64,000 nucleotides of DNA, taken from the IMG/VR virus record IMGVR_UViG_3300018984_000003, positions 45,787-109,786 of that record. One strand, 5' to 3'. This stretch comes from a virus (lineage: Duplodnaviria; Caudoviricetes). Shown piece by piece: positions 26,866-61,835 of this stretch. The notes under the pieces were generated by a model that was not told where the DNA came from, did no database searches, and saw only the letters and a program-made list of their open reading frames with translations. The translations under genes and the position numbers were made by a program. The first letter of the stretch is position 1; each line of letters opens with the position of its first letter.

Positions 26866-27005
26866 AAGCGAGGGAGCTATGGTTGAGTATGGTACTCAGA
26901 TTTTTTCTATTTATAATATTCCTACGTGACAAACTCATCTATTACGATCGCGCTTCTGCCTATAATCTATCTGTAGAGGCTGTTTAACTCTCGATTCTAA
27001 GATTT
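26866..27005 (+). repeat. Dispersed intergenic element, copy A
   Basis: AAGCGAG..TGAG..TATAAT..CGTGACAAACTCATCTATT..CTGTAGAGG. Confidence 0.85.
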
Positions 27006-27097
27006 TATCAAAGAAAAACCCGGTATTTTGAATTTGTCGGGTTTTCTTTTGAGTAAAAAATAAGCTTACGTTTGTTGTGGTTCAATTTTCAGAATCT

Positions 27098-27178
27098 TCA
27101 AGCGTTTATAGTTTGCTGGTACAGCACCGCTGTAAAAATCCACCACAGCAAGATATGAGTGTTAAGGAGGTAACTCAT
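27098..27178 (-). pseudogene. Truncated VapC/PIN toxin N-terminus
   Basis: MSYLLNTHILLWWIF.. resembles the PIN start YLLDTHILLWW. ATGA-coupled to the antitoxin and stops after 26 aa. Confidence 0.7.
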
Positions 27179-27561
27179 CCCCATTGCTGGAGTTCCTCTT
27201 CTGGCAGTGGTTCAAAGAAAGCATCGCCTAATTGTCCTTTCAGTAAACCAGGACTACGGCGTTGTGTACATTGCTGATATCGCGCCGCTGCTGCACTAAG
27301 CGCTTCGTTAGGTGGATGGGGGTTCAGCAGAGCCTCCACAAAGGCTTCGCCGTCTTCTTTATTGAATATGAGGGTTTGGGTTTCTTCATTGCTGAGATGG
27401 CAAGGGACTTCGTTTTGCTCTCTAGCCATTCGTTCGATCGCATCACTAAGGCTGGTCGCCGTAAGCTCAACTTGCTTTGTTCTCAGCCATTTAACGGCGG
27501 TCTCAGTCAAAGTAAGGTCAATCCTGCGCTTGTTTTCACTATAAATTTTTTTTCTTCCCAT
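27175..27561 (-). CDS. Chimeric antitoxin-like protein (RHH + DUF1778-like + VapB/DUF2281-like tail)
   Basis: RIDLTLT..SLSDAIER, EAFVEALLNPHPPNEAL..AAARY and RRSPGLLKGQLGDAFFEPLPEEEL..W. Confidence 0.7.
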   Translation of the reverse strand: MGRKKIYSENKRRIDLTLTETAVKWLRTKQVELTATSLSDAIERMAREQNEVPCHLSNEETQTLIFNKEDGEAFVEALLNPHPPNEALSAAAARYQQCTQRRSPGLLKGQLGDAFFEPLPEEELQQWG

Positions 27562-27878
27562 CTTGACACCGGAATAAAATGTGTATAAAATAACAGTAAC
27601 ATAAAAAAGGACAAACAGCGCATCAAATGTAAATGGTTGTGGTAAGGCAGGGGAATCAAAAAAAAATACCAGAGCGATTAGGTGTCGCTGATGGTATTTT
27701 AGGGATAGGGCAATCGCCCAAAACTCAGGGATCAGATACTACAAAAAGTTACAAGTCAAAAAATCAACGTCTCTAAAAAGATAGAAATTTTTAGAGTTTT
27801 GCTAGAAAACTGAAAGCGTCACTCGCAGAGAAACCGCTAAACAGTCACAGGGAAACTTAGATCAATTACTCAAAAGTT

Positions 27879-30800
27879 ATGTCAATACTAACAAACAATT
27901 TCTATTCTGTCAAGAACTTTAAGCACGAAAGTTGCCCGGTTTGCAACAATAACGACGCACGTTGCAAACCGTCTCATGGTGACAGTATCCTCTGTTGGAA
28001 TACTACCGCATCAGAAGTAGATGAGGCTAGCTGGTTCATAGTTGCCGATATTGATGCAGGTAACTCAGGAATGAGAGGGGTGATGGTTGCGCCCCGGAAA
28101 AATTCGGATGATGAAAAAGAAGATTTGGAAATTCTAGAATACAAGCGCCAACAGGCAAGACAGCGGAGATCGCTAGAGTTGGCACATCTGCCATCAGTTG
28201 AGAGTCGAGACAAGGGTTACAGAGAGATTTTAGAGGCAATGACGCTATCAAGCAAGCACTCATTCACCCTCAAAGAGAAGCGGGGTTTGAGTCGAGAACA
28301 GGTTCAGATAGCAGAAAGATTGCTATGGTTCAAGACTTGGGAGAAAGGCATTGATTGCTCAGAGAATATAGCAGGAATCGATCCGGCAACCGAGGCTACC
28401 CGATGGCTGGGGGGGATGTTTATTAGTGCGATCGACCACAACGGGAACATTTTAGGGGGTCAGATTGCTGCTGACAACACTGAAGTAGTCGGCAAGTATT
28501 TCTGGGTATCTAGTCTTAAAGTTGGCGGGTACGGCTGCAATATGCCCTACACCAACTCCCTTCCCCTGTTTGTTCGCAAGCATCCAGACAGCGCCCAAAC
28601 ATCTCAGATTTGGCTCTGTGAGGGCGGATTGAAGAGTGCGATCGTCGCATTAAAAGCGTGGGAAACAGACATAAATATTGTGGTTGTCGGTACGGCAATG
28701 TCTGCTAGGTTCTCCGATCAACTACTTGACATTTTGGCAGAGTTAAAGCCGTCAGACGGGGTACGAATTCTCCCCGACGCTGGCACGGTCGAGAACTTGA
28801 GCATTCTCTCCGGGGTTTTAATTACGATTGAGCAAATCAAAAAAAACGGCTACATCTCTCAAATCGGTTGGTGGGATCAGTGGGAGAAAGGAAACTCGCT
28901 AGACATTGACGATTATCTTATTGCTAAGAATGGGGATTATACTGAAATTGTCTGGCTGACGACAGCTCAATTTGTCTCGCTCGTTACGCCTGCAAACCTG
29001 TCTGAGACAATAAAAAAAAACGAGCCTGCACCACAGTCAGAAGTTCTCCCGTTCGAGCCACAGATGAAAAGAAGGTCATCAGAAGCAGCTAACGACAAAG
29101 CTTATAAGACTTACCAGAAATATTTAGAACTCGACGCACCCGACGTTACAAAATTTGGGAATATTCTAACCAGTCAGCCTAAGCTCGCTACCGATTGGAA
29201 TGCTTTAAACTCCGATAACAATACCCCTTATGAAGCGGGCTGGGAATTCTACCCGCCCCGCCCCGGTGAAATCCTCTTTCTCGTAGCAGGAACAGGAGAG
29301 GGAAAATCCCACCTGCTAGCTCATTGGATGAATGAGTACTTTATAGAACATGGTTGCATCTTCCTTGGCTATAGAAACGGGCTATTACACCAACAACGTA
29401 AGAAAGTTAACGAGTTAGTACACTTGCGGGGAGAAGATTCCGACGGATTTAGAAGATTAGTAGACCCCTACTATAGAGTTGCATTTTGTGACGCTTCTTT
29501 GCACAATGAAGATGTTACGGGAAGTTGCACTCACAGAAAAATTCTAGTTCTTGATGAAGTTATGAGCATCCTCAGCAGTCTCTTTTTAGGCTCAACTTGT
29601 TCGATCAAACGCAGAAAAAGGTTAAACGTTTTTACAGAGATGTTGCAAGAGGCTGATATGGTTATTTGTTTAGATGCTTACCTTGCTAATTGGTGTGTGG
29701 ATCTGCTTACGCATCTAGCTAAAAAGGTCAAGAGAGTCATGCAGAACAAATGGCAAGGCCAACCGCGCAAAGTTAAGATGCTAATGGGTACAGAGACGAA
29801 TCCAAACGACAAAACAGCTATTACATCTGATATTCTTGCTGATGCAATAAACAGCAAGCCGATCGCAGTGTTCAGCGATTCTAAACAGGATTTGCACACT
29901 CTTCACAATATGATGATAAAAAATGGAGTAGATCACAGGTCAATTGCTCGTGTTGATTCATCAACATCTAGTGAAAAATGGTGTATTGAACTGTTAGAAA
30001 ATATTGATTTGTACCTAGAGAATCATCCAGAGATTAAAGTTTTACTCGTTTCCCCGTCTGGCGATTCGGGATTGGATTTGAGTCGGGTATATTTTGAACA
30101 CGTCTATTTGATTCTGTGCGGTACGCTAACAATTGACAGTGCGTTGCAGATGTATGGGAGAGTGAGAGATCGAAGCGCCCCCAGAACGGTATTTTGTGCA
30201 AAAAATGCACATCATAACATGATAGATGGAGGACTTACAAAAGCTGAGATTCAAGGTGAGATGAGTTTGTCGATCGAAAATCAATTGAGACTAATTACAG
30301 ACGGTGCTGAAGATTCTGACGACATAAAAAGTCTGATGCTTGCAGCGGTTGAAAAGTGGCAAAAAAAAGAGCGTACTGATAAAATACTAGATGCTGTCAG
30401 CTTGATGCTGGCTAAGGCGAATTTTGAGAAATTATATTACAGGGATCTGTTTGTAGAGCGGCTGGAAAAACTGGGAGACATTATCGAGTTTGCTTGTGAG
30501 GAAGGAGACCCAGATATTAAAAAAAAATATCAAGAGACCTCGCTGGAAGTCAAATATGCAGAGGCTGATAAGTTTGTAGCGGCTGAGGAAATCAGCGAGA
30601 TAGAAGCCGAATCGCTAAGAAGGAAAGACTTAAACCCTGAACAGGTTATGCAGTTAAAGAAATTCGATCTGCAACACAGAATTCCCGGGGTAGAGATTGA
30701 CAGAGGATTGGCTAAGACACTACTCTACGATCGAGATTTCTTGAAAGGATTGGAACAAAGGTATTACCTCTCGCATCCCGAAATCTCTATAGAGATAGCT

Positions 30801-31298
30801 CAATTAAAGTGGGGGAAATCGCTATCCAAACGTGAATTTTTCACCTCGGATATGAGATCCAAGCTAGCAGTGAGAACCGACTGCCTCGACAAGCTGGGAT
30901 TGCTCGAATTCTTAGACGACCGAGAATGGTTAGAGAATGGAAGCGAGGTTAAGATATTAAGGCAACGCTGGGACAATTTGCGAAAGACTTACTCGAATTT
31001 ACGGAACATAATGGGATTTGAATGGGACAAGAAAAAACCAATCCAAACCGTTTACAAGCTGTTAGATTTAGTCGGCTGCGAGTTGAGAGTAATCAAGGCA
31101 AAGTCAGGAGAGCAAAAGACGGGGCAAAAAGTCAAAAAAAGACGGATCACTTTTGGGTCTCTGAATGATCCGATCCGGTTGGCAATTCTAGAATCATTCG
31201 ACAAGCGGTTTGAAAATTTAAAGGAGGTAGACTGGCAAGAAGTCAAAACAGTATGCAAGAACGAGATCGAGCTTGAACCGGAACTGGTGACAGCGTAA
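27879..31298 (+). CDS. Primase-helicase / replication initiator, CyRepA1-like (Zn finger + TOPRIM + helicase/origin-binding domain)
   Basis: CPVC..C..C, LCEGGLKS, PDAG, DIDD, AGTGEGKS (Walker A), VLDEV (Walker B), SPS..SGLD, QMYGRVR. Confidence 0.85.
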   Translation: MSILTNNFYSVKNFKHESCPVCNNNDARCKPSHGDSILCWNTTASEVDEASWFIVADIDAGNSGMRGVMVAPRKNSDDEKEDLEILEYKRQQARQRRSLELAHLPSVESRDKGYREILEAMTLSSKHSFTLKEKRGLSREQVQIAERLLWFKTWEKGIDCSENIAGIDPATEATRWLGGMFISAIDHNGNILGGQIAADNTEVVGKYFWVSSLKVGGYGCNMPYTNSLPLFVRKHPDSAQTSQIWLCEGGLKSAIVALKAWETDINIVVVGTAMSARFSDQLLDILAELKPSDGVRILPDAGTVENLSILSGVLITIEQIKKNGYISQIGWWDQWEKGNSLDIDDYLIAKNGDYTEIVWLTTAQFVSLVTPANLSETIKKNEPAPQSEVLPFEPQMKRRSSEAANDKAYKTYQKYLELDAPDVTKFGNILTSQPKLATDWNALNSDNNTPYEAGWEFYPPRPGEILFLVAGTGEGKSHLLAHWMNEYFIEHGCIFLGYRNGLLHQQRKKVNELVHLRGEDSDGFRRLVDPYYRVAFCDASLHNEDVTGSCTHRKILVLDEVMSILSSLFLGSTCSIKRRKRLNVFTEMLQEADMVICLDAYLANWCVDLLTHLAKKVKRVMQNKWQGQPRKVKMLMGTETNPNDKTAITSDILADAINSKPIAVFSDSKQDLHTLHNMMIKNGVDHRSIARVDSSTSSEKWCIELLENIDLYLENHPEIKVLLVSPSGDSGLDLSRVYFEHVYLILCGTLTIDSALQMYGRVRDRSAPRTVFCAKNAHHNMIDGGLTKAEIQGEMSLSIENQLRLITDGAEDSDDIKSLMLAAVEKWQKKERTDKILDAVSLMLAKANFEKLYYRDLFVERLEKLGDIIEFACEEGDPDIKKKYQETSLEVKYAEADKFVAAEEISEIEAESLRRKDLNPEQVMQLKKFDLQHRIPGVEIDRGLAKTLLYDRDFLKGLEQRYYLSHPEISIEIAQLKWGKSLSKREFFTSDMRSKLAVRTDCLDKLGLLEFLDDREWLENGSEVKILRQRWDNLRKTYSNLRNIMGFEWDKKKPIQTVYKLLDLVGCELRVIKAKSGEQKTGQKVKKRRITFGSLNDPIRLAILESFDKRFENLKEVDWQEVKTVCKNEIELEPELVTA

Positions 31299-32102: not shown

Positions 32103-32232
32103 ACTTCTATAATACAACTGTCGGGAGGGTGGCGAAAAGTAAACGCATCAATCAAATTCAAAATTTGACGCCGAAAGGCATGAGGGTTCAAGACCCTCTT
32201 CTCCCATTGTCGCTGACACTCTCTAACCAGAT

Positions 32233-33240: not shown

Positions 33241-33421
33241 ACCTATTCTACCTACTGAGGTTGTTTTGATTTCTAATTTCAAAAATAATACAATCTCTAC
33301 AGGTGGAAAATAGATATAGTCAAAAGTTTAATAGATGAGTCTGTCACGCAGAGTTATTATAAAATACAAACAACTGCGTGACAGACTCATCTATAAGCCT
33401 ATGGTAAATATCTCTCGCTTC
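33241..33421 (-). repeat. Dispersed intergenic element, copy B
   Basis: Perfect 21-bp inverted repeat 33331-33351 / 33374-33394, ending TCTCGCTTC. Confidence 0.9.
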
Positions 33422-33486
33422 TAAACAAAGAGAAGCCCCCGGCGGCGGGAGCTAAAAGTTGCGTTTCTACCATTCTGTCGGAAACA

Positions 33487-36916: not shown

Positions 36917-36981
36917 TCATAGAATGCCGCCGATAGGGTGTGTCGGCGGCATATCAAGAAAACTCAGTGAGAAAAGTCGGG
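36917..36981. repeat. 65-bp perfect direct repeat (second copy 38018-38082): strong hairpin plus tRNA 3' end
   Basis: TCATAGAATGCCGCCGATAGGGTGTGTCGGCGGCATATCAAGAAAACTCAGTGAGAAAAGTCGGG in both places. Confidence 0.95.
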
Positions 36982-37310
36982 ATGTGAAGTCGAACCACTT
37001 GTTTACTTTCTTCCTGAGTAAAAGCCGCTGTGATGGTGGTGTATTGAACCAGGCGAGAGTAAGAAATAGAAGGAAAGTAAGAGACTATTAATTGAACCTA
37101 TATTGGTGAATGAAAGCGTTGATTAACATTGCCTAAGCAAATTAAACTTAAATTAATTTGTTACAAGATTTTTTGAGCATAAATTCCTAAAGAACGGTAC
37201 AAATCTTGTTATTGTTGATCTTATACTGGTAAGAATGTTTTAGATGAACAAATCTAGATGAACAAATATGGTATCATGTAACTACAGTTACCACCATTTT
37301 TTTAAAATAT

Positions 37311-40097: not shown

Positions 40098-40156
40098 CAA
40101 AAAACCCGGCGGTTTTGGGTACTGCCGGGTTTTGTTTTGGGGTGTGGGGCGGGGTC

Positions 40157-50175: not shown

Positions 50176-50193
50176 AGCGGACGATCGCCGTAA

Positions 50194-51478: not shown

Positions 51479-51579
51479 CCCCGCCCTCTAAAAATCTTTT
51501 TAAAATCGCTTGACAACAAGGGTTGGTGTCTGCTAGTTTTTAAAAGTCAAGAAAAACAGAACCCAAGGAAAGCAGTAAC

Positions 51580-51867
51580 ATGACACGCACCACAAAAAAG
51601 ACCAAAGCAGTATCTGCCCCTAAACCCAAAGATGTAAAGATTGAACTTTACTTTGATGCTAACTACGTTTGCCTTGGCGGACGTGCAGATGATTGGTGGC
51701 TACCCAATTACAGCGGTGAGTATTATTACACCAACTCTGTGCGGTTGAATTACGGCTTCAATCCTGTCGGTAAATCAGAACTTACCTTAATGCTTACGTG
51801 TAGTCGCCGCGACTATACCCTGATATCGAAACCCGCAGGAGTAACACCTGTATTGAAATCTATTTAA
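51580..51867 (+). CDS. Hypothetical early protein
   Basis: First ORF after the promoter at 51510. Confidence 0.65.
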   Translation: MTRTTKKTKAVSAPKPKDVKIELYFDANYVCLGGRADDWWLPNYSGEYYYTNSVRLNYGFNPVGKSELTLMLTCSRRDYTLISKPAGVTPVLKSI

Positions 51868-51902
51868 TCAGAACCGTAGAACACACAATAACGAAAGCAA
51901 GA

Positions 51903-52124
51903 ATGAAAACGACATCAGAGAATCATGGCTATCAAGTTAAAATACACTACATTTCAATGGATTATTTTATGGACTCTGGCGAAATGTTCTATAACGGTGG
52001 TAAACCTTACCGCAGTCGCAAGACAGCAGTAAATGCAATGAATAAACTACTTGCTGACATAGATGCTGGCATCATTAAAGTGGATGGCTTTAGACATTGC
52101 GAGATTGTTGAATGGTTTGCCTAA
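51903..52124 (+). CDS. Hypothetical early protein
   Basis: 73 aa ORF. Confidence 0.6.
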   Translation: MKTTSENHGYQVKIHYISMDYFMDSGEMFYNGGKPYRSRKTAVNAMNKLLADIDAGIIKVDGFRHCEIVEWFA

Positions 52125-52626
52125 TGTTGTAAAATAAATTCTGAACAATACCATGATTATCATCCCCTGACACTGCGATTGGGTTTTTTTCTTGCAAGAA
52201 AAAAGAGCCGGAGAAATATAGAAAACTCGGCTCTTTGTCACTAATTCTTGTCAGACTTCAAACTTCCATTGTAGCCGTTCTACAAAAAACCGCCCCGAAA
52301 GCTGAGGGCGGCGCTACACCGTAAACGCAATTTAAATTTTGGTTTTAAATTTTGGACTTAAAGTTTGAATTCGTTGTTTAGTCAGACGGCGATGGTTATA
52401 CATCGGGGCAATCGCGGGATCACACCGTCTATCCCTAATAGGGAGTGAGGGCAATTGCAATAATTTGCCGGAAAAATCAGCAAGCAATCCTTGAGTTTCA
52501 ATCCCTGGTAGGGGATTTGAGCTGTAAAGCCCTGCCGCCCTGTTCTCCCTACAATATAGCTCTTCCTCTGCCTTGTCAACCCTCACGCTCAATTTTGACG
52601 GGAGCGGCGGCGGTTTATCGAGAATA

Positions 52627-52800
52627 GAAGCGAGACATAATTTGCTCGTATTTACTGTTGAGGTTGTCACTCAGTTTTTATGTTCTATAATATCTCTAAT
52701 TAACAAACTCATTTATTGTACTATCTATTCTTTATATACTCTGTTTGTAGAGTTTAATTAAATCCTGTTTTTAATCTTTCGTAAGATTTTAACTCTGAAA
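52627..52800 (+). repeat. Dispersed intergenic element, copy G (degenerate)
   Basis: GAAGCGAGA..TGAGGTTGTCACTCAG..TATAAT..ACAAACTCATTTATT..TGTAGAG. Confidence 0.8.
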
Positions 52801-53001
52801 TTGCCATGAGGATTTTCTAATGAAACGATTGACAATATAAAGAGTTTATGTGAGAATTGTAAAAAGGGAGGAGAAAGAGTCTAACCCTAAGTTTAATTCC
52901 TCAATTCCTCTCTTTTTAAAAGTTCTACTCCGCAGCACCAATCTACGGTACAGCTAAATAGAACCGCAAACAACGTCAGCACAATTCATTTTTTCAAATT
53001 T

Positions 53002-53295
53002 ATGGCAACTATCAACATTTCTGGACTAAACAAAGCTGAAGTTTTAGCAGCTCTGTACAATAACTCAAAAACGCAGGGTATGGGAAGACTACATTACACC
53101 CCTGAACCAATGACAATTCAAGAAGCAAATGAGCTTTTAAATCAATCCCACTACTTTGACTATTTAAAGGGTCGTGTCATGAGGGTCGATTTAACGTCTG
53201 ACTCTCTTGATACTTGGGGTTATGACCGTGATAATGGTAAAGGCGCAGCGTATCGAGCAATTTCTCACCTAGTTGTTGAACAAACATCAACATAA
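53002..53295 (+). CDS. Conserved phage hypothetical protein
   Basis: INISGLNKAEVLAALYN..YFDYLKGRVM.VDL..YDRDNGKGAA. Confidence 0.8.
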   Translation: MATINISGLNKAEVLAALYNNSKTQGMGRLHYTPEPMTIQEANELLNQSHYFDYLKGRVMRVDLTSDSLDTWGYDRDNGKGAAYRAISHLVVEQTST

Positions 53296-53369
53296 ACCAC
53301 TCAATAAAAGAGTAATTACTGCTATTTAAAAGTAATTACTCTTTCCTTAATTCTACTAAGTGAGACACC

Positions 53370-53888
53370 ATGACGACTTACACAATCCCGAATATTGACA
53401 ACAGTAATGACAAAACGATCGTCCTTACTAAGGCAGAGGCAAAGTGGATTAACGCCAATATGCCAGAGGTCAAACTTGACCTGGTAGGATGGCTCAAAAA
53501 TGTTTGCCCGACTGATTTGACAGCTATCATTACCGGGGATCTGACAGAAGAGTCAGGGGTTACGCAAGCAACCCGCACCCGACTTAAACGGAAAGAAATA
53601 ATTGATTATGATAACGATCCGATGAGTCTTAAAGTTAGTCTGACACGGTGGCATTTAACACCATTGATGCAAGAGCATTTAGACGCAACAAGGGCAAAAA
53701 TATTGGGCGATGCCAACTTCACCACTATCAAGTTAGAGAGAACAGGTACAGTCTGGAAGATCGCCCCTCTCTACTTCAATCAATTTCGGCGGCGCTTAAT
53801 AGATCTCATTCCGACCAAGCCCAAAACAATCAAGCCTCCTACACCAAAACCCTCTTCTGAATGGAGTTTCACTCCTGCAACGGCATAA
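53370..53888 (+). CDS. Hypothetical protein
   Basis: 172 aa ORF followed by a terminator at 53917-53942. Confidence 0.7.
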   Translation: MTTYTIPNIDNSNDKTIVLTKAEAKWINANMPEVKLDLVGWLKNVCPTDLTAIITGDLTEESGVTQATRTRLKRKEIIDYDNDPMSLKVSLTRWHLTPLMQEHLDATRAKILGDANFTTIKLERTGTVWKIAPLYFNQFRRRLIDLIPTKPKTIKPPTPKPSSEWSFTPATA

Positions 53889-53939
53889 TGTAACGATTAG
53901 ACGGTCAAACTACCTTAAAGCCCCTTTAAGCGGGGCTTT

Positions 53940-54269
53940 TTGTTATCAAAGACATCGAGTTGTTTGAAGGCTGAAATAATGAAAACTAAGAAAGCAGCGG
54001 AAACAATTTTTAAAATAGGCGATCGAGTCAAACTGAAAGCAGGGGTTAAGCCTGTTGAGGTCAACGACTTTGAGAACTACCGTCAACCATGTTATTTTGA
54101 GGCTGAAGACGTGGCAACCGTGTTTGCGGTAGATTCACCCCGTCTCCGACACAAACCGGGTTATCCTGACACTCAGACGGTTGTGAGATTTGAAAAAATC
54201 GGGTTTAAAGGGGTGCTGGCTCAACTGGTAGCAAGGGTTGAGACATTGGATCTAAAGTTGGCAAGTTAG
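53940..54269 (+). CDS. Hypothetical SH3-like protein
   Basis: FKIGDRVKLK motif. Confidence 0.6.
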   Translation: MLSKTSSCLKAEIMKTKKAAETIFKIGDRVKLKAGVKPVEVNDFENYRQPCYFEAEDVATVFAVDSPRLRHKPGYPDTQTVVRFEKIGFKGVLAQLVARVETLDLKLAS

Positions 54270-54298
54270 CTTAACCAATCGCCATCAATAATACCAAG

Positions 54299-55063
54299 AT
54301 GCTTTATCAAATGGGCATCTACCACTCATTTACTACATCGAAGAGGATTCAAATGTTACTGGGAATAATTGATATTGAAACTACAGGTTTAGACAATCGA
54401 TCTGAAATCTGTGAGTTTTCAATTACAGTCTACAAAATTGGACTAACTAGGAAGGAAACCGGAGCAATCACAAGCTTTAGCAGTCTTTTGCCAATCACAC
54501 AAAATGATGTAGAAGAAGTTAACTGGATTTCGTCGCAGTTATCACAAAGCTCAAAACAATTCTACGAACAGTCGATCGCGGTATTCAAGAATCTAGTTTC
54601 AACATCTGATTACTGCGTTGCATTTAATGCAGCGTTTGACAAAGAAAAGTTGAGACCGCTAATAGGTAAGCAGAAATGGATTTGCGCGATGAGCGATTTT
54701 GAATGGGGCTATAGGAAAGACAACAGCTACGGAAATTTCAGGCTTATTGACTTAGCCCTGTGGTTAGGAATTGGAATCAGTACCCACCATAGAGCAAGTG
54801 ACAATGTTCGCCTGCTAGTTGAATGCCTAAATAGAGTACCCAATATCATGGAATTTGTTGAGAAAGGCATTACTAGATCGCAGTCACTAATGTTTGATGT
54901 TCAAGCAGTTGTTGAATACGGCAATTACGACTTGGCTAAGAACGCCCATTTTACTTGGATTCCAGATAAAAAAGTGTGGGTCAAAAAGGTTAAAGAATGC
55001 GATTTGGAAATTCTTCTTAACAAACTTCCTTTCCCATGCAACCTTTTGAAGGTTGTGAAATAG
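54299..55063 (+). CDS. DnaQ-like DEDDh 3'-5' exonuclease
   Basis: IIDIETTGL..AFNAAFD..HHRASDNV. Confidence 0.88.
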   Translation: MLYQMGIYHSFTTSKRIQMLLGIIDIETTGLDNRSEICEFSITVYKIGLTRKETGAITSFSSLLPITQNDVEEVNWISSQLSQSSKQFYEQSIAVFKNLVSTSDYCVAFNAAFDKEKLRPLIGKQKWICAMSDFEWGYRKDNSYGNFRLIDLALWLGIGISTHHRASDNVRLLVECLNRVPNIMEFVEKGITRSQSLMFDVQAVVEYGNYDLAKNAHFTWIPDKKVWVKKVKECDLEILLNKLPFPCNLLKVVK

Positions 55064-55126
55064 ATGACCGAAAGGGGCTATCGAACTATCGCCCCGACAG
55101 ACTAAAATTATCTAAAGAGAGTAAAA

Positions 55127-55423
55127 ATGACACTGACACACTCAGAACGAATTGAAGCATTGAAAGCTTACAATGAAGCGCACAAAGAAGGCAAAAAACA
55201 AAGACTAACAGCAAGAGAAGCCTATCACGACTTAGGAATGAGTTGCCCCTCAATAACCTGTCTAAAAGTTGCGAATGAATCATTGACTGAACTCCTATAC
55301 TCTCCCTCTATCTCTGTAGAGAAGCATGAGGAATTAAAGAAGTTAGCTGTTCAGATTGAAAAAGAATCTAACAAATTAAGAAAGAGTCTAGCTCTAATTA
55401 ATAAGTTGTTGGTTGCTGAATAG
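55127..55423 (+). CDS. Hypothetical protein
   Basis: 98 aa ORF. Confidence 0.6.
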   Translation: MTLTHSERIEALKAYNEAHKEGKKQRLTAREAYHDLGMSCPSITCLKVANESLTELLYSPSISVEKHEELKKLAVQIEKESNKLRKSLALINKLLVAE

Positions 55424-55493
55424 TTAAACGACTTCGGGGTGATCGAGCCATTGCCCCGACAAACTACCTAACACAAGAGAGAGAGGTAACAAA

Positions 55494-55808
55494 ATGAAAA
55501 GAATCAGCACAGTCGGAGAGGAACGGTTCAAGGTGTGGCGGTTGACAGATGGGCAGGTCATGGTTGAGCAAGTGATTGTAGAGTTTGACAGTCCCAAACA
55601 AGAATGGATTTGTGACCCTCGCTTTACTTGGGGAAAGAAATCAACTGAAAATGTAGTAGATAAGGCTACAGGGGCGACGAAATACACAGAAAGATTCAAC
55701 GCACAGCGCGTCTTTAATAATCGCTCCGACGCCGACAGGTACGCCAAACAATTAGAAGACGAGAAGCTGATTCTTGCTAAGAACAAAGAGGGTAAAGTCG
55801 AGGTTTGA
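55494..55808 (+). CDS. Hypothetical protein
   Basis: 104 aa, GAGG RBS. Confidence 0.65.
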   Translation: MKRISTVGEERFKVWRLTDGQVMVEQVIVEFDSPKQEWICDPRFTWGKKSTENVVDKATGATKYTERFNAQRVFNNRSDADRYAKQLEDEKLILAKNKEGKVEV

Positions 55809-55961
55809 TCGCTCTCTCATAGCATCCCTTAAATTCAAGAAAAAGCCCCGGTAACAGACGGGGCTTTGAAACAATGACAACACAAAAAACAAATGACTTT
55901 CGACAAGCTATTCAATAATAGCACTATTGATGTAAAATGTAAATGTGGCTGAAAGGGCGAG

Positions 55962-56564
55962 GTGAATCGCCCTATTATCATCAGCAGTCAACCTCAGAGA
56001 AAAGTTGACTATTCGGAGTCTAGCACAAAAAAGGAGAGAGTCATGCAATCAGTAGAAAAAATTACCCTGTCTGAATACATTGAGTTCTTAAAAGAGATTG
56101 AAGTAGATTTAAGATCTGCACAGGATATTTTAGATAAAGTAATGGCAAGAGCAAAAACAAACGAACGCCTTTATAACTTTTCCCTGTTGCTAGATAATGA
56201 GGATAAATGGACAAAGTTTAATGTTTACGGTTTTTTTCATAGTCACGACTTAAATTGCAAAGCCAACATAATTAAGAATTACAGAGAAGAAAGGGAGATC
56301 CAATTAGCAGCGATTACAGTAAATCAGGGGTTAGTTTATCTAATAGGAAGCGACGATGCACGAATTTTAAAGATAGGTTACACAACAAGAAACATAGAAG
56401 AAAGACTAAGAGAAGTACAAGCGGGAAGAGCTTACGAATTAAAAGTCATCAAAACAAAACCAGGAAGTTTTGAGACAGAAAAAGCAGAGTTACTGAAGGC
56501 GAGACGGTTTCAAATACACAGCGAATGGTTTACTTGGGATGACTCCATCATTGAGAATTTCTAG
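55962..56564 (+). CDS. Coiled-coil + GIY-YIG/T5orf172 domain protein
   Basis: GLVYLI..LKIGYT..IEERL..Q..SEWF. Confidence 0.8.
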   Translation: MNRPIIISSQPQRKVDYSESSTKKERVMQSVEKITLSEYIEFLKEIEVDLRSAQDILDKVMARAKTNERLYNFSLLLDNEDKWTKFNVYGFFHSHDLNCKANIIKNYREEREIQLAAITVNQGLVYLIGSDDARILKIGYTTRNIEERLREVQAGRAYELKVIKTKPGSFETEKAELLKARRFQIHSEWFTWDDSIIENF

Positions 56565-56647
56565 CCACCTTTAAGCTACTAAAAAACCGCCCTGTTACCG
56601 GGGCGGTTTTTAGTTTAGAGGCGAGGGTTAATTTGCTGATTTAGCAG

Positions 56648-57598
56648 CTAGTTTCTCAGCGCGTCTTGCCTGACCTGACTGAGTTCATACTTAGCTTTAC
56701 TCTCTTGAGCCTCCTGATACACAATGTCCCAGTATCCCTCCATCAAATCTCGGTAACGTTCCTCAATCCAAACTCCGAACTGGCGAAAATACACCCGGTT
56801 AAAATCCTCCATCGTGTTCACGCTATTGAGCATGATTTGGATCTTCTCTAGATAAGGTTTCATTCTCTCTCTAGTCTCAGGTTCGATTAACTGGTGGAGG
56901 CAGTGATCTCGTTTTTTGCGGTTTTTCGTCTCGCTCAACCTATCCATCTTGTGATACTCTTCTGGAGTTAGCAGGGCATAAACAACCTCGCGATAAAACT
57001 TGTGACCGTAAGTCTTGCTGATGCGATCGCAGAACTTTTTGTCATACATCTTTTCCCACGGGTTAGGCGCGTCTAAAATCCGAGAAAGTTTGTCTTGTGC
57101 TTTTGGCGCTGCATTGATTTCTGCATAGCCAGTCTTGTTCTGAATATACGCAGCTAGTCCAATGTCTCCCAGAATCCCTAAAAAGTCCTGAGCGTTCTCA
57201 TCACCTTTGAAAGCGTAGTGCTTGATAGCAGCAGAGCAAAAGTCTGATTTATAGACTACCGCCGCCGCACCTTGTTTGCCAGTTTTGACGGGTTTGGTAA
57301 TCAATTTCAAATCCTTACCCACAAATGGTTCTAACCACTTTGACGGCGACTTAGTAATCAATTGTTCTACCAACTTTGCGATCACTGGGTTTGTTTTCCC
57401 GCAGGCGCGTGCTAGACCGCGCTGACTCATTCCTGATTCGCCCGTCTCTGCGATGGTGAAAACTCTACACCATTGCTTTCTGAGCGTAAAACTGTTACAT
57501 TGTTCATGTTCACTTACTACTACTAGGTGGACTGCCGATCGATAGAAAGGTGCTGATAACACCTGATCGGCCCAATATTTCAATTGTAACACAGGCAT
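56648..57598 (-). CDS. Antirepressor-like DNA-binding protein (HTH N-terminus, P63C-like C-terminus)
   Basis: TGESGMSQRGLARACG and PWEKMYDKKF..LHQ. The start is uncertain. Confidence 0.6.
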   Translation of the reverse strand: MPVLQLKYWADQVLSAPFYRSAVHLVVVSEHEQCNSFTLRKQWCRVFTIAETGESGMSQRGLARACGKTNPVIAKLVEQLITKSPSKWLEPFVGKDLKLITKPVKTGKQGAAAVVYKSDFCSAAIKHYAFKGDENAQDFLGILGDIGLAAYIQNKTGYAEINAAPKAQDKLSRILDAPNPWEKMYDKKFCDRISKTYGHKFYREVVYALLTPEEYHKMDRLSETKNRKKRDHCLHQLIEPETRERMKPYLEKIQIMLNSVNTMEDFNRVYFRQFGVWIEERYRDLMEGYWDIVYQEAQESKAKYELSQVRQDALRN

Positions 57599-57671
57599 CC
57601 GCCGCCTGCATAATAAATACCCACAAGTTTTACCCTATTTCCCCGGCATCCCTCCCACCCGCCGGGTTTTT

Positions 57672-57833
57672 TCTTAGTAAAAACTTAGACGCAAAACTCA
57701 ATCAAGCTCATCAAATATAATGTATACAGAACTGAAAAAGTAATAGCTGAGTTTGTCACGTAGGAAAATTATAGATATAAATAATCTGAATGACAGACTC
57801 ATCTATAAACCTATACGAGTTATCTCTCGTTTC
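57672..57833 (-). repeat. Dispersed intergenic element, copy H
   Basis: TGAGTTTGTCACGTAG..ATTATA..TGACAGACTCATCTA..TCTCGTTTC. Confidence 0.88.
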
Positions 57834-57944
57834 AAGATACGATTGCCCCACACCCAAAGCAGAAATATGAACCTATCAAAGACCGCCCCTCAGCCTGAAA
57901 ATAATTACCTGTCGGCTTCTGAGTACGCGAAGATTCGATGTTGG

Positions 57945-58334
57945 TTACTCAATTCTAACCCAGTAAAGGTGTGGGTCTTTTTTGGGTTGCGGTTGTATAG
58001 CGAACAATTGGTATCTGAGTTGAATCATTCTCATTCCGAAAGCTTCTGTCATTTTTAAAGCAGTGTAATCTTCCTCCCCTTTGTTTTTGGCTAATCCACC
58101 GATCGGGCAGTAATATCTATTTTTATAAACCTTGACGAGCAATCTCCGCTTTTCAAAAAGAGAATGAGACGGTAGCTCAAAATATTCTATCTCGACTTTA
58201 TCCGCTTGCTCTCCGAGGTTACTATTTCCCAGTAGTGAATAGGTTGCCGATTGCATACACAGTTCAAACTCTTCATCACATCTAAAGGCTATCTCTCTTA
58301 AGTTAGCCTCTTTTACCGATTCATTTGTTACCAT
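57945..58334 (-). CDS. Hypothetical protein
   Basis: 129 aa ORF. Confidence 0.6.
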   Translation of the reverse strand: MVTNESVKEANLREIAFRCDEEFELCMQSATYSLLGNSNLGEQADKVEIEYFELPSHSLFEKRRLLVKVYKNRYYCPIGGLAKNKGEEDYTALKMTEAFGMRMIQLRYQLFAIQPQPKKDPHLYWVRIE

Positions 58335-58506
58335 AGCTTTCTCTTTCTTTTTTCTAATAAAAAACCTAACTGGTCAGGGCGGCTAGTCTACTATACCAAG
58401 GATCAATTAAAATGTTAGCATAAAAACCGATCAATAAAGGTGTTTCGATTGACCTTTATCGGTCGATACTATTGCCCACAATTACGCAATTCAAAGAAAG
58501 AATAAA

Positions 58507-58791
58507 ATGAATTTAACCCAATCTGCCCCGATGTCAGAGAACAATTACCTGTCAGTGAGTGAGTACGCGGCGATCATCGGCATTGCCGTCTCGATCGGAG
58601 AAACAAACCTGATTGAATCCACAGCCGCCAAAATATGCCTGTTTGGAGGCATCGCAACACTAAGAACGTTCGATCATCATACCAGTGACGAGATAACGGC
58701 GTATCCTGTGACGATTCTGGCGGCGCTGTTCGATGTCTACTTGCGACTTGCCTCCGACCGTCCCCCGACAACCGACAACGCCCAAAACTGA
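58507..58791 (+). CDS. Hypothetical protein (its N-terminus is duplicated near 57867)
   Basis: MNLTQSAPMSENNYLSVSEYA versus MNLSKTAPQPENNYLSASEYA. Confidence 0.65.
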   Translation: MNLTQSAPMSENNYLSVSEYAAIIGIAVSIGETNLIESTAAKICLFGGIATLRTFDHHTSDEITAYPVTILAALFDVYLRLASDRPPTTDNAQN

Positions 58792-58990
58792 AGCGAGAGG
58801 GAAATTGACTACCCTCTATTATTACTGAGTCTGTTACGCAGTTATTTGTATTTTATAATCTTCCTACGTGACAGACTCATCTATTCTATCTCTTATTCTA
58901 CCTGTATCCTGACTGTAGAGCTTGTATGAACTTTGAAATCAGAAAACAAAGCAATCTCAACAGATAGAACGGATAAACGTCTCTCGCTCC
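58790..58990 (+). repeat. Dispersed intergenic element, copy I (full length), followed by a TTGACA promoter
   Basis: GAAGCGAGAG ... CTCTCGCTCC, both internal inverted repeats. Confidence 0.9.
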
Positions 58991-59103
58991 TCACCGCCCT
59001 TTAAAAATCTTTTTGAAATAACTTGACATAAAGGGTTGTCGTCTGCTAGTCTTTAGTAGTTAAGAAAAACAGCATCCAGCGTAACGCTCAAGAGACAAAC
59101 AAA

Positions 59104-59595
59104 ATGACACTGACAGCAGCAGCAAAAATCGAACTAATCGAAACGACCCTTGCAGACGGCAAATACCGCACACTGCAAAAGCAACTGAAGGAATTGAAAG
59201 ATGCGGAACAAATTACTACCAGATGCTATCTCAGTAATAGCCACGAATTATTGAAAGCAGAAGCGCAACGCATTATTCTCGAACTGAAGCCAAACACGCG
59301 AGACAGCCAACCTGGAAATGTGGCGACAGCGAAAGATTGCTATGCTCCGCCCTTAGTTGACTTGTTACTTAGTGAACATCCAGACCGCTGCATAGTGGTT
59401 TCAGGGTTTACCAATTTTGATGAATACTTCAAACGTAAAGTCTCGCATCTTGACGGCGTTTTTAACGAGTTGGATAATAGCTGGCGGTTTTGTCTCGCTA
59501 CTCTCCCGTTGCTGTTGGTGTACTTCCCAATGCCCGACTATCAGCACTCAGACACTTTAAAAAGAGAATTTGAGCCGATCGAGTGCGGATTTTAA
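59104..59595 (+). CDS. Hypothetical early protein
   Basis: First ORF after the promoter at 59023. Confidence 0.7.
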   Translation: MTLTAAAKIELIETTLADGKYRTLQKQLKELKDAEQITTRCYLSNSHELLKAEAQRIILELKPNTRDSQPGNVATAKDCYAPPLVDLLLSEHPDRCIVVSGFTNFDEYFKRKVSHLDGVFNELDNSWRFCLATLPLLLVYFPMPDYQHSDTLKREFEPIECGF

Positions 59596-59751
59596 GTCAA
59601 ATGAAACATAATTTAATAGATAAAAATCCCTCATCAAAGAGTTTTATCTGCTGTATTTTCAATCTCCGACGGGCAATGCTCTAAAAATTTTATTGAGTAA
59701 AATTGATGTTGATCGGATTATCTACTTTGAAAAGTCCAGACAATCTTTAAT

Positions 59752-59949
59752 TTGGAGGGAGACGCTATGAGATGGAAATTTAGGACGGCGATCGAGATAC
59801 TGGCAAAATTAGAACCCAATCCAAAAATAGATCGCAGTTGGTCAAATCGTTCTCGCATTTATGGAATCTTGAAGCGAAAAGGCTACCACTACCGCAACTG
59901 GAGGGGAGATCCTAGCCGATGGATTGAACCGCTAGACAACTCACTTTAA
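59752..59949 (+). CDS. Small basic hypothetical protein
   Basis: GGAGG RBS before MRWKF. Confidence 0.5.
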   Translation: MEGDAMRWKFRTAIEILAKLEPNPKIDRSWSNRSRIYGILKRKGYHYRNWRGDPSRWIEPLDNSL

Positions 59950-59970
59950 AAACAGAAACCTCACCGACTA

Positions 59971-60204
59971 TTGAATTATCTAACCCAATCCTATAAACAT
60001 ATAGACTCAAATCACAAACTGGTTCAGCTATTAGCACGTAACATAGCGCTAAATCACGGCTACACCCTACCAGATGGAGACTTAAACGAATCTAATTCCC
60101 CTCGTGCTTTTCTGTTTATGAGTGATGCTGAAATTGGATTACAGGTGATCGCCTCTTACTTAGCGGAGAACAATCTGCATTTTGAAACACTAATAAAAGA
60201 ATAA
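59971..60204 (+). CDS. Hypothetical protein
   Basis: 77 aa followed by a terminator. Confidence 0.5.
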   Translation: MNYLTQSYKHIDSNHKLVQLLARNIALNHGYTLPDGDLNESNSPRAFLFMSDAEIGLQVIASYLAENNLHFETLIKE

Positions 60205-60248
60205 GAAAAAGAAAGAACGCCCCGGACTGCCGGGGTTTTTTTGCAGGA

Positions 60249-60413
60249 GAAGCGAGATATAATTGGTTTATCTGTGTGGCTAAGTTTCTCATTTAGATTT
60301 TTGTATTTTATAATATCTTTACGTAACAAACTCATCTATTATATTGCCGATTCTATAGCCGTTTCGTTTGTAGAGGTTGCTTGAGTTTTGATTGTAAGTT
60401 TAAAAGAGAGAGA
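60249..60413 (+). repeat. Dispersed intergenic element, copy J
   Basis: GAAGCGAGA..TATAAT..CGTAACAAACTCATCTATT..TGTAGAGG. Confidence 0.85.
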
Positions 60414-60416
60414 AAC

Positions 60417-60695
60417 TCAGAGCCACAGGTCGCCGTCTTGAATTAGGGTGCGATCTGCGGCAACATTATCACGATTAGAGCGGCGATGGTGGAGGCGGTG
60501 GACAGATGCGCTCGAACAGATTTCAAGGTTGTCGGGATGATTATTGGCGGGGTCGCCGTCTAGATGGTGGACAACCTCACCGCGTCTCAATTCCCTCCCT
60601 AGCTTCTGAGCGGCAACGACGCGGTGCAAGTAGACCGTCTGATACTTGCCTCGCTTCATCTTATTTTTTATATTATTGACAAAAACCGATTGCAT
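60417..60695 (-). CDS. HNH endonuclease domain protein
   Basis: HRVVA..LGREL..EVVHHLDGDPANNHPDNL..H...H. Confidence 0.85.
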   Translation of the reverse strand: MQSVFVNNIKNKMKRGKYQTVYLHRVVAAQKLGRELRRGEVVHHLDGDPANNHPDNLEICSSASVHRLHHRRSNRDNVAADRTLIQDGDLWL

Positions 60696-60902
60696 TTAAT
60701 ACACTATAAAAGTCAGACATTAGAAAGAACACTAATAATATTATGATAGTCAAAAAGTTTGGAATTGATTTTAACTTTCCAGACGGAGCCTTGACATTGG
60801 AACCAAGCAGCGGGCGGCAGCCCTGACATTTTCGACAAATTGCCCTAATGGTCATTCGCCGCCCCGCCCCATCAAAAAACATTTCGCAATCTTAAAAGTA
60901 AA

Positions 60903-61619
60903 ATGATTAACAATAATTCTCAATTGACCGATATAAGCGCTTGGAATGCTGATAAGTCTGGATTGTTTGATTCTAAACTAGAATTATTTAACAAGTTAAA
61001 TCCAGACATCCAATGTAATGACTGGATCTGCGATGACTGGACTTTTGATTTTCGTGACAACAAATGGGATTTGTATTTTATAAAATGGGACAGAGCCGAA
61101 AAAGGTAAACTATTTTATAAAGTAGTGGGAAAATGGGAACCATTTATAGAGCCGGGCGTTTTAGATGAGGGCAAAGAAATCGAAAGGGTAGACAAGGTAG
61201 TTATAAGAGGCGTAGATGTAAAAAAATGGAATCAAAATGATGAAACTTTTAAGTTTTCTTCTTCATGTTTTTCTAAATGTTCACTAAAGCGTCATGAAGC
61301 CTTGGTGATGTGTTATGGAAATTTTGAACATTTTCCGAAAGACTGCGTTGACATTGATGTTGAAATATTTAAAGATTTGATGGACAAAACCCATAAACTT
61401 CTCTTAGAAAAATGCAATAGTTTAATTCAAACAGCTACTCGAAAGAGGTTCAAGAGAGGATGGGTTTTTTACAAAATGAGAGAAGATTACCCTGCTATAG
61501 ATAAACTGTGGAAGCCACATGGATTTTATTATGAAATTTTGATCGACGTGGCACATTACTATAGCTACAAACACAAAAGTGTTCACCCAGAGGATATAAA
61601 AAGACAGAAAGGGTATTGA
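60903..61619 (+). CDS. Hypothetical protein (AT-rich)
   Basis: 238 aa ORF. Confidence 0.7.
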   Translation: MINNNSQLTDISAWNADKSGLFDSKLELFNKLNPDIQCNDWICDDWTFDFRDNKWDLYFIKWDRAEKGKLFYKVVGKWEPFIEPGVLDEGKEIERVDKVVIRGVDVKKWNQNDETFKFSSSCFSKCSLKRHEALVMCYGNFEHFPKDCVDIDVEIFKDLMDKTHKLLLEKCNSLIQTATRKRFKRGWVFYKMREDYPAIDKLWKPHGFYYEILIDVAHYYSYKHKSVHPEDIKRQKGY

Positions 61620-61666
61620 TGATTATCTTTGGTAAGAGGATTTATGCCAAACACGGGGCGGTTTTT

Positions 61667-61835
61667 CTTTTCTCTTTCACTAAAACTTATATGCAAAAGC
61701 CGATCAACCTCTACAGGTGGAATCTATATATAAACGAGAACATAATAGATGAGTTTGTCACGCAGTAAAGTTGTAAAATATAAAAGTCTGAGTGACAGAC
61801 TCATCTATAAAGACCAACTAATTGTCTCTCGCCTC
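61667..61835 (-). repeat. Dispersed intergenic element, copy K
   Basis: CCTCTACAG..AATAGATGAGTTTGTCACGCAG..CTGAGTGACAGACTCATCTAT..TCTCGCCTC. Confidence 0.9.

Follow-up and report, generated by a model that had tools for sequence, protein, structure and literature searches.

What does a family of dispersed, nested palindromes do in the genome of a tailed virus that keeps them apart from its virion genes? The locus that raises this question is a window of 64,000 nucleotides, bases 45787-109786 of the IMG/VR virus record IMGVR_UViG_3300018984_000003 (G000; 109,786 bp, CheckV completeness 92%), and the window always means this whole stretch. A sequence-only reading of it had listed eleven copies of an intergenic element with nested inverted repeats and an embedded promoter, and had offered three options: (a) platforms for protein binding or recombination that shuffle accessory modules, resembling res or pdif sites or the promoter early stem-loop (PeSL) cassettes of T4, (b) small RNAs with a variable targeting middle, or (c) a domesticated MITE, a miniature transposable element with inverted repeats. 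The reading that we adopt, with slightly more doubt than confidence, is that these cassettes are lineage-specific, PeSL-like mosaic boundary elements that recombine by homology.

A profile built from the 11 window copies, which are lettered A to K, retrieved all eleven at the places and on the strands first reported, and added 9 copies in the preceding 45.8 kb of the record (E-values 5e-40 to 4e-25), so that G000 holds 20. Two related virus contigs, G001 and G002, carry 23 copies and 22 diverged copies, respectively; counts out of 43 refer to the 20 copies of G000 plus the 23 of G001. The two arm motifs of 20-22 nt described earlier each matched 12 times in the window with at most 3 mismatches, against 0 expected from 100 shuffles. 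The intergenic location was borne out as well, with 19/20 copy cores overlapping open reading frames (ORFs) of at least 100 aa by no more than 4 nt in a genome where ORFs of 100 aa or more cover 75.7% of the sequence; the exception is copy G, which shares 47 nt with a 112-aa ORF. As had been claimed for the structural half, none of the 20 G000 copies lies within the virion or tail-fibre blocks, and the copies of G001 and G002 are likewise intergenic and outside virion blocks. Two suspected stubs, at 40917 and 63941, proved to be exact solo GAAGCGAGAG 10-mers; the first (40917-40926, plus strand) adjoins a terminator, and the second (63941-63950, plus strand) is the same as record bases 74-83. 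Because this second stub duplicates the start of the record, the contig ends overlap. The 60 nt at window 63941-64000 equal record bases 74-133, and contigs from two DNA runs pass the end of the window straight into the record start; the genome, which has the IMG/VR class of linear, is likely to be complete, with either circular permutation or terminal redundancy.

G000 appears to be a cyanophage-like tailed virus whose closest isolates are cyanobacterial siphoviruses. Tailed-phage markers were found in it as matches to head protease, major head protein, tail-fibre and terminase, and the isolates nearest by head protease (about 33% identity) are Synechococcus phage S-CBS4 and Aphanizomenon phage CL131. 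Its sequence is carried by four DNA runs, all labelled biocrust metagenome; for window 51200-61100 the run search listed no RNA run. The genome contains heptamer tandem repeats, and the G002 copies are flanked by GCGATCGC-type motifs, both of which are typical of cyanobacteria; the heptamers (TCATTAG / GTCATTA, about 25 in tandem) occupy window 26566-26743, between the second HU gene and copy A, and arrays of this kind are typical of filamentous cyanobacteria. G001 (IMGVR_UViG_3300035686_000002, 151.7 kb) is the sole other IMG/VR contig with the exact 18-nt motif of arm 2; it is syntenic with G000, with protein identities of 50-90%. G002 (IMGVR_UViG_3300037325_000356, 63.9 kb) was found by aligning homologues of the Rep protein, its own Rep being 55% identical. 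It shares with G000 about 23 early, replication and methylase proteins and no structural protein at E<=1e-6, which argues that the cassette family travels with the early and replication module of the clade. Rep homologues occur on about 20 more contigs, at 53-86% identity; the cassettes were compared between G000, G001 and G002.

Outside these three genomes the family was not met. The blastn search of a copy against 50,697 phage records gave no match, the dispersed family was not found in the first 100 kb of Aphanizomenon phage CL131, and a metagenome scan with a 17-nt motif returned, among the matches listed, single chance matches, none of them real by the profile. A looser palindrome pattern matched four other viral contigs, each through one unrelated terminator hairpin, and a generic pattern of end repeat plus arm gave 17 more single matches, none a real copy; both sets were discarded. 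A search of the literature on such elements in cyanophages, or on biocrust cyanophages, found no description.

The cassettes are 150-200 bp long and are built on a basic unit of about 115 bp with an AT-rich centre. This unit is a nested inverted repeat that reads GAAGCGAGAG, about 22 nt, arm 1, an AT-rich apex, arm 2 and then CTCGCTTCT. The inner arms measure 14-20 bp, arm 1 being TAGATGAG TCTGTCAC and arm 2, after an apex of 22 nt, (G/T)TGACAAACTCATCTATTA; 8-9 nt past arm 2 stands TCGCTTCT, the inverted partner of the left end. In G000 and G001 one of three alternative 3' modules follows: a conserved terminator (S1, 7/43), an A/G-rich tail (S2), or the hairpin H2 with a right end repeat (L, 21/43). 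The reference anatomy is that of copy I (e18 in the numbering of G000 copies; 58788-58990, plus strand, core 58788-58945), a long copy. Its left end repeat GAAGCGAGAG (58790-58799) is followed by arm 1, TGAGTCTGTTACGCAG (58826-58841), which contains the -35-like CTGTTA at 58831-58836, by the TATAAT of the apex, the putative -10 element of a promoter P1 (58854-58859), and by arm 2, CTACGTGACAGACTCATCTATT (58864-58885), the most conserved block of the family, in which a transcript is predicted to start at about 58866. The mid stretch (58886-58913), of fixed length and semi-conserved, contains an inner copy of the end motif; H2 (58912-58963) runs from arm 3, TGTAGAG, to arm 4, CTCAACAG, with wobble pairs that are strand-asymmetric; and the right end repeat CTCTCGCTCC closes the copy at 58981-58990.

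The layout, the long and short forms and the terminal repeats described in the sequence-only reading were all present. Conserved spacer lengths with diverging sequences had also been proposed, and the stretch from arm 2 to TGTAGAG is indeed 29 nt long in 40/42 copies measured (28 and 27 nt in the two exceptions), with a left spacer of 22 nt in most copies. The segment called variable, of 27/28 bp, is in fact this 29-nt semi-conserved stretch with its third end-motif copy TCGCTTCT. Peaks of the information profile fall on the end repeat, TGAG, TGTCAC, TATAAT, arm 2 and CTGTAGAG. Read from the alignments, the four arms have GWWGAGnyTG in common in alternating orientation, and arm 2 is nearly invariant across the 43 copies while its partner arm 1 varies; by hand count, the two inverted pairs span 60 bp and 47 bp between their outer edges. 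In G002 the arms read GTCTGTCGTTT / AAACGACAGAC, the apex is itself palindromic (TCTTACTATTAGTAAGA), and the outer pair is in some copies a perfect 12-bp inverted repeat, AGAAGCGAGTTC / GAACTCGCTTCT; the 3' module is either a terminator resembling S1 or, directly after the unit, a 9-bp hairpin and a T-run.

The claim of an embedded promoter stands at the level of its hexamers. The apex in G000 and G001 reads YTGTYA-17-TATAAT, and an exact TATAAT lies 10 nt before GACAAAC in 12/20 copies of G000 and 17/23 of G001. Exact TATAAT is thus in register in 29/43 copies and a TAnnnT hexamer in 42/43; a -35 hexamer with at least 4/6 matches is present in 23/43, at a spacing of 16-18 nt, and a consensus scan picked 4/8 copies in the stretch scanned (D, G, H and J) with 10-11/12 matches. 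Terminators accompany many copies. In 12/43 the left end repeat is preceded, at a distance of 9-18 nt, by the end of a hairpin with a T-run, and for this reason many copies can be described as terminator-then-promoter composites. The S1 terminator lies about 95 nt past the predicted start in 7/43 copies, giving promoter-to-terminator units of 120-128 nt, and the 'CAAGAAAAAACCCG' terminator module was found again in G002. Short copies had been said to meet terminators, and A, C and H carry the hairpin: copy A (e10; 26866-27051, plus strand, core 26866-27004) has a degenerate left end repeat, arm 1, a TATAAT apex, arm 2 from 26922, the 29-nt mid stretch, arm 3 and the S1 hairpin at 27019-27041; copy C (e12; 39937-40137, plus strand, core 39937-40092) has it at 40105-40129; and copy H (e17; 57642-57834, minus strand, core 57682-57834) at 57642-57666.

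A second, canonical promoter class, P2 (TTGACA TAAAGGGTT..GTGTG CTAnnnT, of extended -10 type), occurs in all three genomes; it adjoins end repeats and points outward, in G000 after D, F and I and in G002 beside four copies. As had been claimed, the last block of these three long copies is a repeat resembling CTCTCGCTTC, and a TTGACA promoter comes after it. In copy D (e13; 44301-44501, minus strand, core 44346-44501), with end repeats at 44489-44498 (left) and 44302-44311 (right), the TTGACA lies just beyond the copy at 44264-44269 on the minus strand, towards a 361-aa gene. Copy F (e15; 51281-51477, plus strand, core 51281-51433), whose arm 1 is decayed, has its right end repeat at 51468-51477 and is followed by TTGACA at 51510-51515 (plus strand). 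After copy I, TTGACA, 18 nt and TAGTCT (59023-59052, plus strand) stand ahead of a 163-aa gene at 59104. The P2 pattern has 16-42 loose matches per genome, with or without an adjoining cassette (e.g. 59023-59052 and 51510-51540), and P2 probably serves as the clade's main early promoter.

The left and the right flank of each G000 copy were matched separately to the G001 copies (f numbers). Five of the 20 copies (e07, e09, e11, e14 and e16) are chimeric, their flanks matching different G001 copies; both flanks are collinear at e13 = f08, e17 = f05 and e18 = f04. Copy B (e11; 33241-33424, minus strand, core 33269-33424, long with a decayed right end repeat) has f06 on its left and f11 on its right, and copy G (e16; 52624-52790, plus strand, core 52624-52774, short, followed by a P2-type promoter TTGACA-17-GAGAAT at 52829-52857) has f11 on its left and f06 on its right. 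By alignment this is a reciprocal exchange between e11/e16 and f06/f11, with the switch between arm 1 and arm 3. Copy E (e14; 45536-45700, plus strand, core 45536-45691, short with the A/G-rich S2 tail) joins the left flank of f09 to the right flank of f03, and the left flank of copy K (e20; 61668-61838, minus strand, core 61683-61838, short S2, with a terminator at 61862-61845 before it) is that of f01. The crossover points are bracketed to about 100 bp, inside the copies. Between consecutive orthologous anchors, intervals that differ in order, content or length make up 14/17 of those with a copy and 16/46 of those without (p=0.0014). Many copies stand at orthologous places in G000 and G001, and the three non-shared copies that were examined (e04, e06 and e19) all lie where G001 has other genes, with no solo insertion difference among them.

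Copies of one genome also appear to evolve together. The core identity between G000 and G001 is 0.66 for positional orthologues and 0.69 for non-orthologues, and since positional orthologues are no more alike than paralogues, we take this as concerted evolution. The same is indicated by variants that paralogues share within a genome, such as an ATTGAC starting arm 2 in 13/23 copies of G001 and 0/20 of G000, or the whole G002 type. Over 44001-64000 the contigs of the four DNA runs were identical to the window and contained no rearranged forms, rare ones being invisible in contigs; apparent joints in them were only cross-matches between paralogous copies. A 16-nt tandem repeat at 47776-47838 breaks the contigs of all four runs, and the dispersed cassettes do not. 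Of option (a), then, the shuffling of modules is upheld by the 5/20 chimeric copies, the reciprocal exchange and the differences in gene content, and the likeness to T4 PeSL is apt; the part that proposed res/pdif-like site-specific recombination is not supported, no integrase or resolvase having been found in G000 or G001.

These results are accommodated as follows. The palindromic cassettes would mark the borders of transcription units in early, replication and accessory regions. In G000 and G001 the apex would be the sigma-70-type promoter P1, with a transcript start in arm 2, as its consensus suggests; in terminator-type short copies this transcript is predicted to end about 120 nt on, and in long copies to pass through an RNA hairpin, H2, in the direction of P2 and the following gene. 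Recombination is shown by the comparison of genomes, its enzymes being presumed: since the genome has about 20 near-identical cores dispersed over it, these act as crossover points, and also as points of gene conversion, for general homologous recombination while the phage replicates. In this way modules of 'cassette plus gene' were exchanged, inserted and deleted between relatives, and the copies of one genome are kept alike. The arms may, by conjecture, serve as an operator for a conserved phage DNA-binding protein.

The closest parallel is PeSL. The PeSL of T4-type phages are cassettes of a sigma-70 promoter and a stem-loop that lie in variable regions and promote modular shuffling by homologous recombination, and their promoter and terminator activity and the mini-circles are demonstrated (Arbiol et al. 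2010, PMC2839356; Comeau et al. 2014, PMC4122927). Like them, the cassettes are dispersed intergenic repeats with a sigma-70-like promoter consensus, to which a putative stem-loop is joined; they, too, seem to gather in variable, non-structural parts of the genome, often beside genes of unknown function. Both families form terminator composites whose inter-copy recombination explains insertions, deletions and replacements between related phages. The cassettes differ in being unrelated in sequence and in virus lineage (no phage isolate match; head protease 33% identical to cyanobacterial siphoviruses) and in measuring 150-200 bp, whereas PeSL is a short motif. They also have outer terminal inverted repeats, H2, fixed spacers of 22/29 nt and a conserved 20-nt block predicted to be transcribed first, and their stem arms enclose the whole promoter in a loop of 22-34 nt. 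By the gene map about half of the G000 copies face no gene, G002 keeps the palindrome without the promoter, and the promoter and terminator that those sources demonstrate for PeSL are in the cassettes predicted. Being unrelated, several times larger, furnished with terminal repeats, mosaic blocks in the style of bacterial interspersed mosaic elements (BIME) and fixed spacings, and having a promoterless relative, the cassettes are not members of PeSL; as far as it could be tested, the family works like PeSL.

Several observations weigh against this interpretation. TATAAT is absent from the apex of the 22 G002 copies, which keep the palindrome, so that the palindrome and not the promoter is the shared core of the wider family; within the 43 copies exact TATAAT is missing in 14, and the -35 hexamer has 3/6 matches or fewer in 20. 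P1 is itself a predicted promoter, a consensus match only. As we read the gene map, of the 20 G000 copies roughly half (e04, e07, e08, e09, e10, e11, e12, e14, e19 and e20) face the 3' end of a convergent gene, only about half have a co-oriented gene downstream, and most G002 copies are antisense to neighbouring genes; to point at convergent 3' ends is odd for a gene promoter. When only intervals with a spacer of at least 150 bp are compared, the difference in rearrangement falls to 14/17 versus 9/17 (p=0.14). Since significance is lost in this way, part of the breakpoint signal comes from copies sitting in real spacers; a cruder break criterion gave 3/7 breaks with copies (p=0.38).

The folding results cut in both directions. 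RNAalifold predicted an end-repeat stem, H1 (arm 1 with arm 2) and H2 from the 21 long copies, with consensus pairing of 89.8%, and the basic unit folds far better than shuffles in 6/10 window copies (z -2.9 to -7.5). Copy H folds weakly (z -2.0, with 7/200 shuffles equal), and F, G and J do no better than shuffles (z -0.13, -1.40 and +1.51). In these three arm 1 is decayed and arm 2 intact, which means that arm 2 matters as sequence beyond pairing; J (e19; 60246-60415, plus strand, core 60246-60400, short S2) follows a terminator at 60219-60236. A test of covariation versus plain site conservation found conservation alone: pairing as high as that observed was reached by 201/500 shuffles, double changes were no commoner than in column shuffles, and the structure has no covariation support beyond column conservation. 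With a loop of 22-34 nt and no U-tract, H1 is not a canonical intrinsic terminator. H2 behaves differently, with 83 G.U cells on the sense strand versus 17 C.A, against a near balance in the other stems of the same copies (G.U:C.A of 15:17 in the end-repeat stem and 17:9 in H1), and this strand asymmetry makes H2 look selected as a hairpin of sense-strand RNA or of single-stranded DNA. A coding cassette was rejected: along one sense frame that crosses arm 2 the median open length is 43 codons, versus 17 in other frames, but the arm 1 start codon is not conserved and indels that are not multiples of 3 occur past arm 2 in 6/21 long copies. Likewise, a 157-aa sense ORF after G001 f03 has a stop and a frame change in G000, the convergent gene being the real one. 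Promoter plus homology gives no reason for the fixed spacings (29 nt mid, 22 nt left), which for that reason suggest that a protein is bound or a strand folded; nor does it explain why arm 2 is invariant and H2 strand-asymmetric, and these features leave room for either.

The cassettes could instead be platforms on whose phased end repeats and arms a phage DNA-binding protein sits, with promoter and recombination effects secondary. They would then work as global operators, as insulators or sites that organise the nucleoid, or, with inverted boxes on either side of an AT-rich centre, as origin-like sites of unwinding. We consider this unlikely, though the fixed spacings favour it: 29 nt are kept in 40/42 copies with free sequence between the blocks, the four arms share their motif in alternating orientation, and arm 2 is nearly invariant where arm 1 is not. 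In G002 both arms have changed together, from GTCTGTCAC/GTGACAGAC to GTCTGTCGTTT/AAACGACAGAC, with the end repeats kept, and genome-specific variants common to paralogues are expected if sites track a factor. Candidate proteins are encoded. A KilA-N protein and a weak CI-like helix-turn-helix protein (below the Pfam cut-off) are common to all three genomes, as is Rep, which in G000 matches PF02399 (UL9-like helicase). In G000 the KilA-N gene occupies record bases 27877-28683, the helix-turn-helix gene record bases 9998-10543 and the Rep gene window 27879-31298. HU paralogues (PF00216), searched for in G000 and G001, lie at window 25165-25464 and 26258-26560 (E 1e-31 and 1e-26; 72% alike as DNA), and G001 has one HU gene, possibly broken into two frames. 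This analysis ties no protein to the sites, however, and the two inverted pairs differ in geometry (60 bp vs 47 bp). Gene conversion accounts for the common variants equally well, twenty origins per genome would be without precedent, and the asymmetric wobble of H2 is not predicted for a site in duplex DNA. The C1 operators of P1 and the stoperators of cluster A mycobacteriophages are dispersed regulatory repeats. Halovirus HF2 has intergenic repeats that carry promoters (PMC8707807). Like all of these, the cassettes are conserved intergenic copies in the tens tied to transcription control; they are unlike them in that the others are single sites of 13-58 bp that are not known to have nested palindromes, end repeats, alternative 3' modules or internal breakpoints.

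Small non-coding RNA genes of about 80-200 nt, with a constant 5' end (arm 2), a CUCGCUUCU motif and a terminator or hairpin, acting on host or phage RNA or protein targets, strike us as improbable. The promoter-like apex, the hairpin of 9 bp with a T-run right behind the G002 unit, the behaviour of H2 as a sense-strand RNA hairpin and the G000 copies, about half by the gene map, that lack a co-oriented gene would all suit them; short transcripts may be made, since 7/43 copies are complete promoter-to-terminator units of 120-128 nt. The absence of covariation counts against such genes, as does the consensus structure of the short forms, which is limited to the terminator. The variable targeting middle of option (b) is not supported as stated: the mid stretch is no better conserved between positional orthologues (identity 0.56) than between non-orthologues (0.53), and its longest antisense match in the phage genome averages 10.85 nt versus 11.10 nt for shuffles, so that no phage complement exceeds chance. 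G002 lacks a recognisable promoter, and in Rfam four copies matched nothing even at E up to 1, the window's only match at the gathering score being a tRNA.

We give just as little credence to a selfish non-autonomous element, MITE-like or like REP sequences (repeated palindromes outside genes) and BIME, spread within the phage lineage by an unrecognised transposase. REP sequences belong to chromosomes, are 20-40 bp long and G+C-rich, and go together with RAYT (Y1) transposases; some REP/BIME classes are associated with IHF/HU-type proteins. They resemble the cassettes as extragenic palindromes in mosaic joining, found where transcription units end and where convergent genes meet and subject to concerted evolution; the cassettes differ by a unit of about 115 bp with an AT-rich centre, restriction to viruses and the lack of a Y1 transposase in G000 and G001. 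The MITE-like traits are real, with GAAGCGAGAG ... CTCTCGCTTC as terminal inverted repeats of 9-12 bp on small units of no coding capacity, about 20 copies per genome regardless of its size (64-152 kb), copies more alike within than between genomes, BIME-like joining of blocks and solo end repeats. Viral genomes with MITEs do exist, if in small number, one survey having found them in 0.2% of viruses (PMC11602168). Those, too, are short, non-coding and multi-copy in the virus, with terminal inverted repeats, but the survey ties them to host copies (PMC11602168), whereas the cassettes show no insertion difference and no host copy: in 185,579 prokaryote species genomes the exact 18-nt arm-2 motif had 12 single matches, in unrelated organisms, none of them cyanobacterial. 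No target-site duplication was seen by eye at the long copies, the three non-shared copies examined all accompany changes in gene content, and many copies are orthologously placed in genomes whose proteins are 50-90% identical. Of option (c), then, the terminal inverted repeats are there, and host copies, a transposase, target-site duplications and solo differences were not found.

The enzymes bear on this and on the readings that follow. Six-frame searches of G000 and G001 found no tyrosine integrase (PF00589), serine resolvase (PF00239) or Y1 transposase (PF01797). It had been stated that the window has no recombinase or transposase; G000 does have a TnpB gene, but outside the window, at record bases 10869-11945 on the minus strand, just downstream of copy e02 (358 aa; OrfB_IS605 plus a Cas12f1-like TNB domain). 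TnpB is not a transposase, it is absent from the orthologous G001 place, and the TnpB-like gene that G001 has at 149875-151089 is another one, with 32% identity. Free-standing homing endonucleases seem to be encoded by two T5orf172/MUG113 (GIY-YIG-like) genes and an HNH_3 endonuclease gene (50700-51161, minus; 55962-56564, plus; 60417-60695, minus); the first adjoins copy F, and the HNH gene adjoins copy J, which faces its end.

By analogy with integron attC sites and REP/RAYT, the palindromes could be substrates of a dedicated cassette-exchange system of lytic cyanophages, in which they fold as single strands during replication and a recombinase whose family is not yet recognised cuts and rejoins them or copies them. 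We think this decidedly improbable, and it is as long a shot that the recombinase would be found among the conserved unknown proteins common to the three genomes. If it were true, the virus would itself encode the means of trading early-gene modules, and through the apex promoter each cassette newly gained would be sure to be expressed. Integron attC sites and the Vibrio cholerae repeats share with the cassettes nested imperfect inverted repeats (60-140 bp) with conserved ends and a free centre, near-uniformity within a genome and the bracketing of single-gene cassettes; unlike these, which form one array, the cassettes are dispersed on both strands, with no IntI/tyrosine recombinase (PF00589) and no R-box core seen. 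Weakest of all, and very improbable, are single-strand-folded sites for dedicated site-specific recombination in the attC or res/dif manner by an unrecognised or host recombinase, for although nested palindromes that are imperfect, conserved at their ends and free in the centre, a high within-genome likeness as in chromosomal integron repeats, direct-repeat pairs bracketing one to three genes, the asymmetric H2 wobble and crossovers inside copies would fit, tyrosine and serine recombinases are absent from both G000 and G001, the crossovers are bracketed to about 100 bp and not to one position, 20-60 bp of homology is enough for phage recombination, and copy orientation relative to genes is not uniform.

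Some further features of the surroundings were noted. Convergent to copy A, a 128-aa protein at window 27175-27561 (minus strand) has a TacA-like antitoxin domain (E 2e-5). In the convergent gene at 45766-46170 (minus strand) the last ~45 residues are a repeated coding module that stands beside S2-type copies, also at G001 7087-7221 and 2512-2652; this C-terminal module is common to several otherwise different genes, one of them chimeric, with an N-terminus that matches G001 at 37.4 kb and a C-terminus that matches G001 at 7.1 kb. A 2445-aa ORF spans the window start (2-1627, minus strand), and copy e09 starts 2 nt past its stop codon, as f14 does for the G001 orthologue. An 80-nt direct repeat, 93% identical and including a GC hairpin, lies at window 36917-36996 and 38018-38097; it abuts an Rfam tRNA match at 38076-38147 (minus strand); ARAGORN instead calls only a tRNA-Leu(CAA) at 32123-32206 (plus strand). 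Three paralogous 300-nt stretches, 61-75% identical (14521-14820, 16554-16853 and 17864-18163), lie at the starts of three adjacent genes of 436-522 aa, which are probably tail-fibre paralogues.

Phages evolve mainly by modular exchange, and to our knowledge the DNA sequences at which it takes place have been recognised in few lineages, PeSLs being one example. The cassettes would add a far more elaborate boundary element in an unrelated cyanophage-like group, with about 20 copies per genome of 64-152 kb and crossovers visible inside them. Their carriers have early and replication genes in common, and not virion genes. The family may thereby give a handle on how early-gene cassettes move, on how repeats are kept uniform and on what reads a palindrome of fixed spacing, a protein or a folded strand; it also supplies candidate parts, promoters and terminators, for use in filamentous cyanobacteria, and a marker sequence for the clade.

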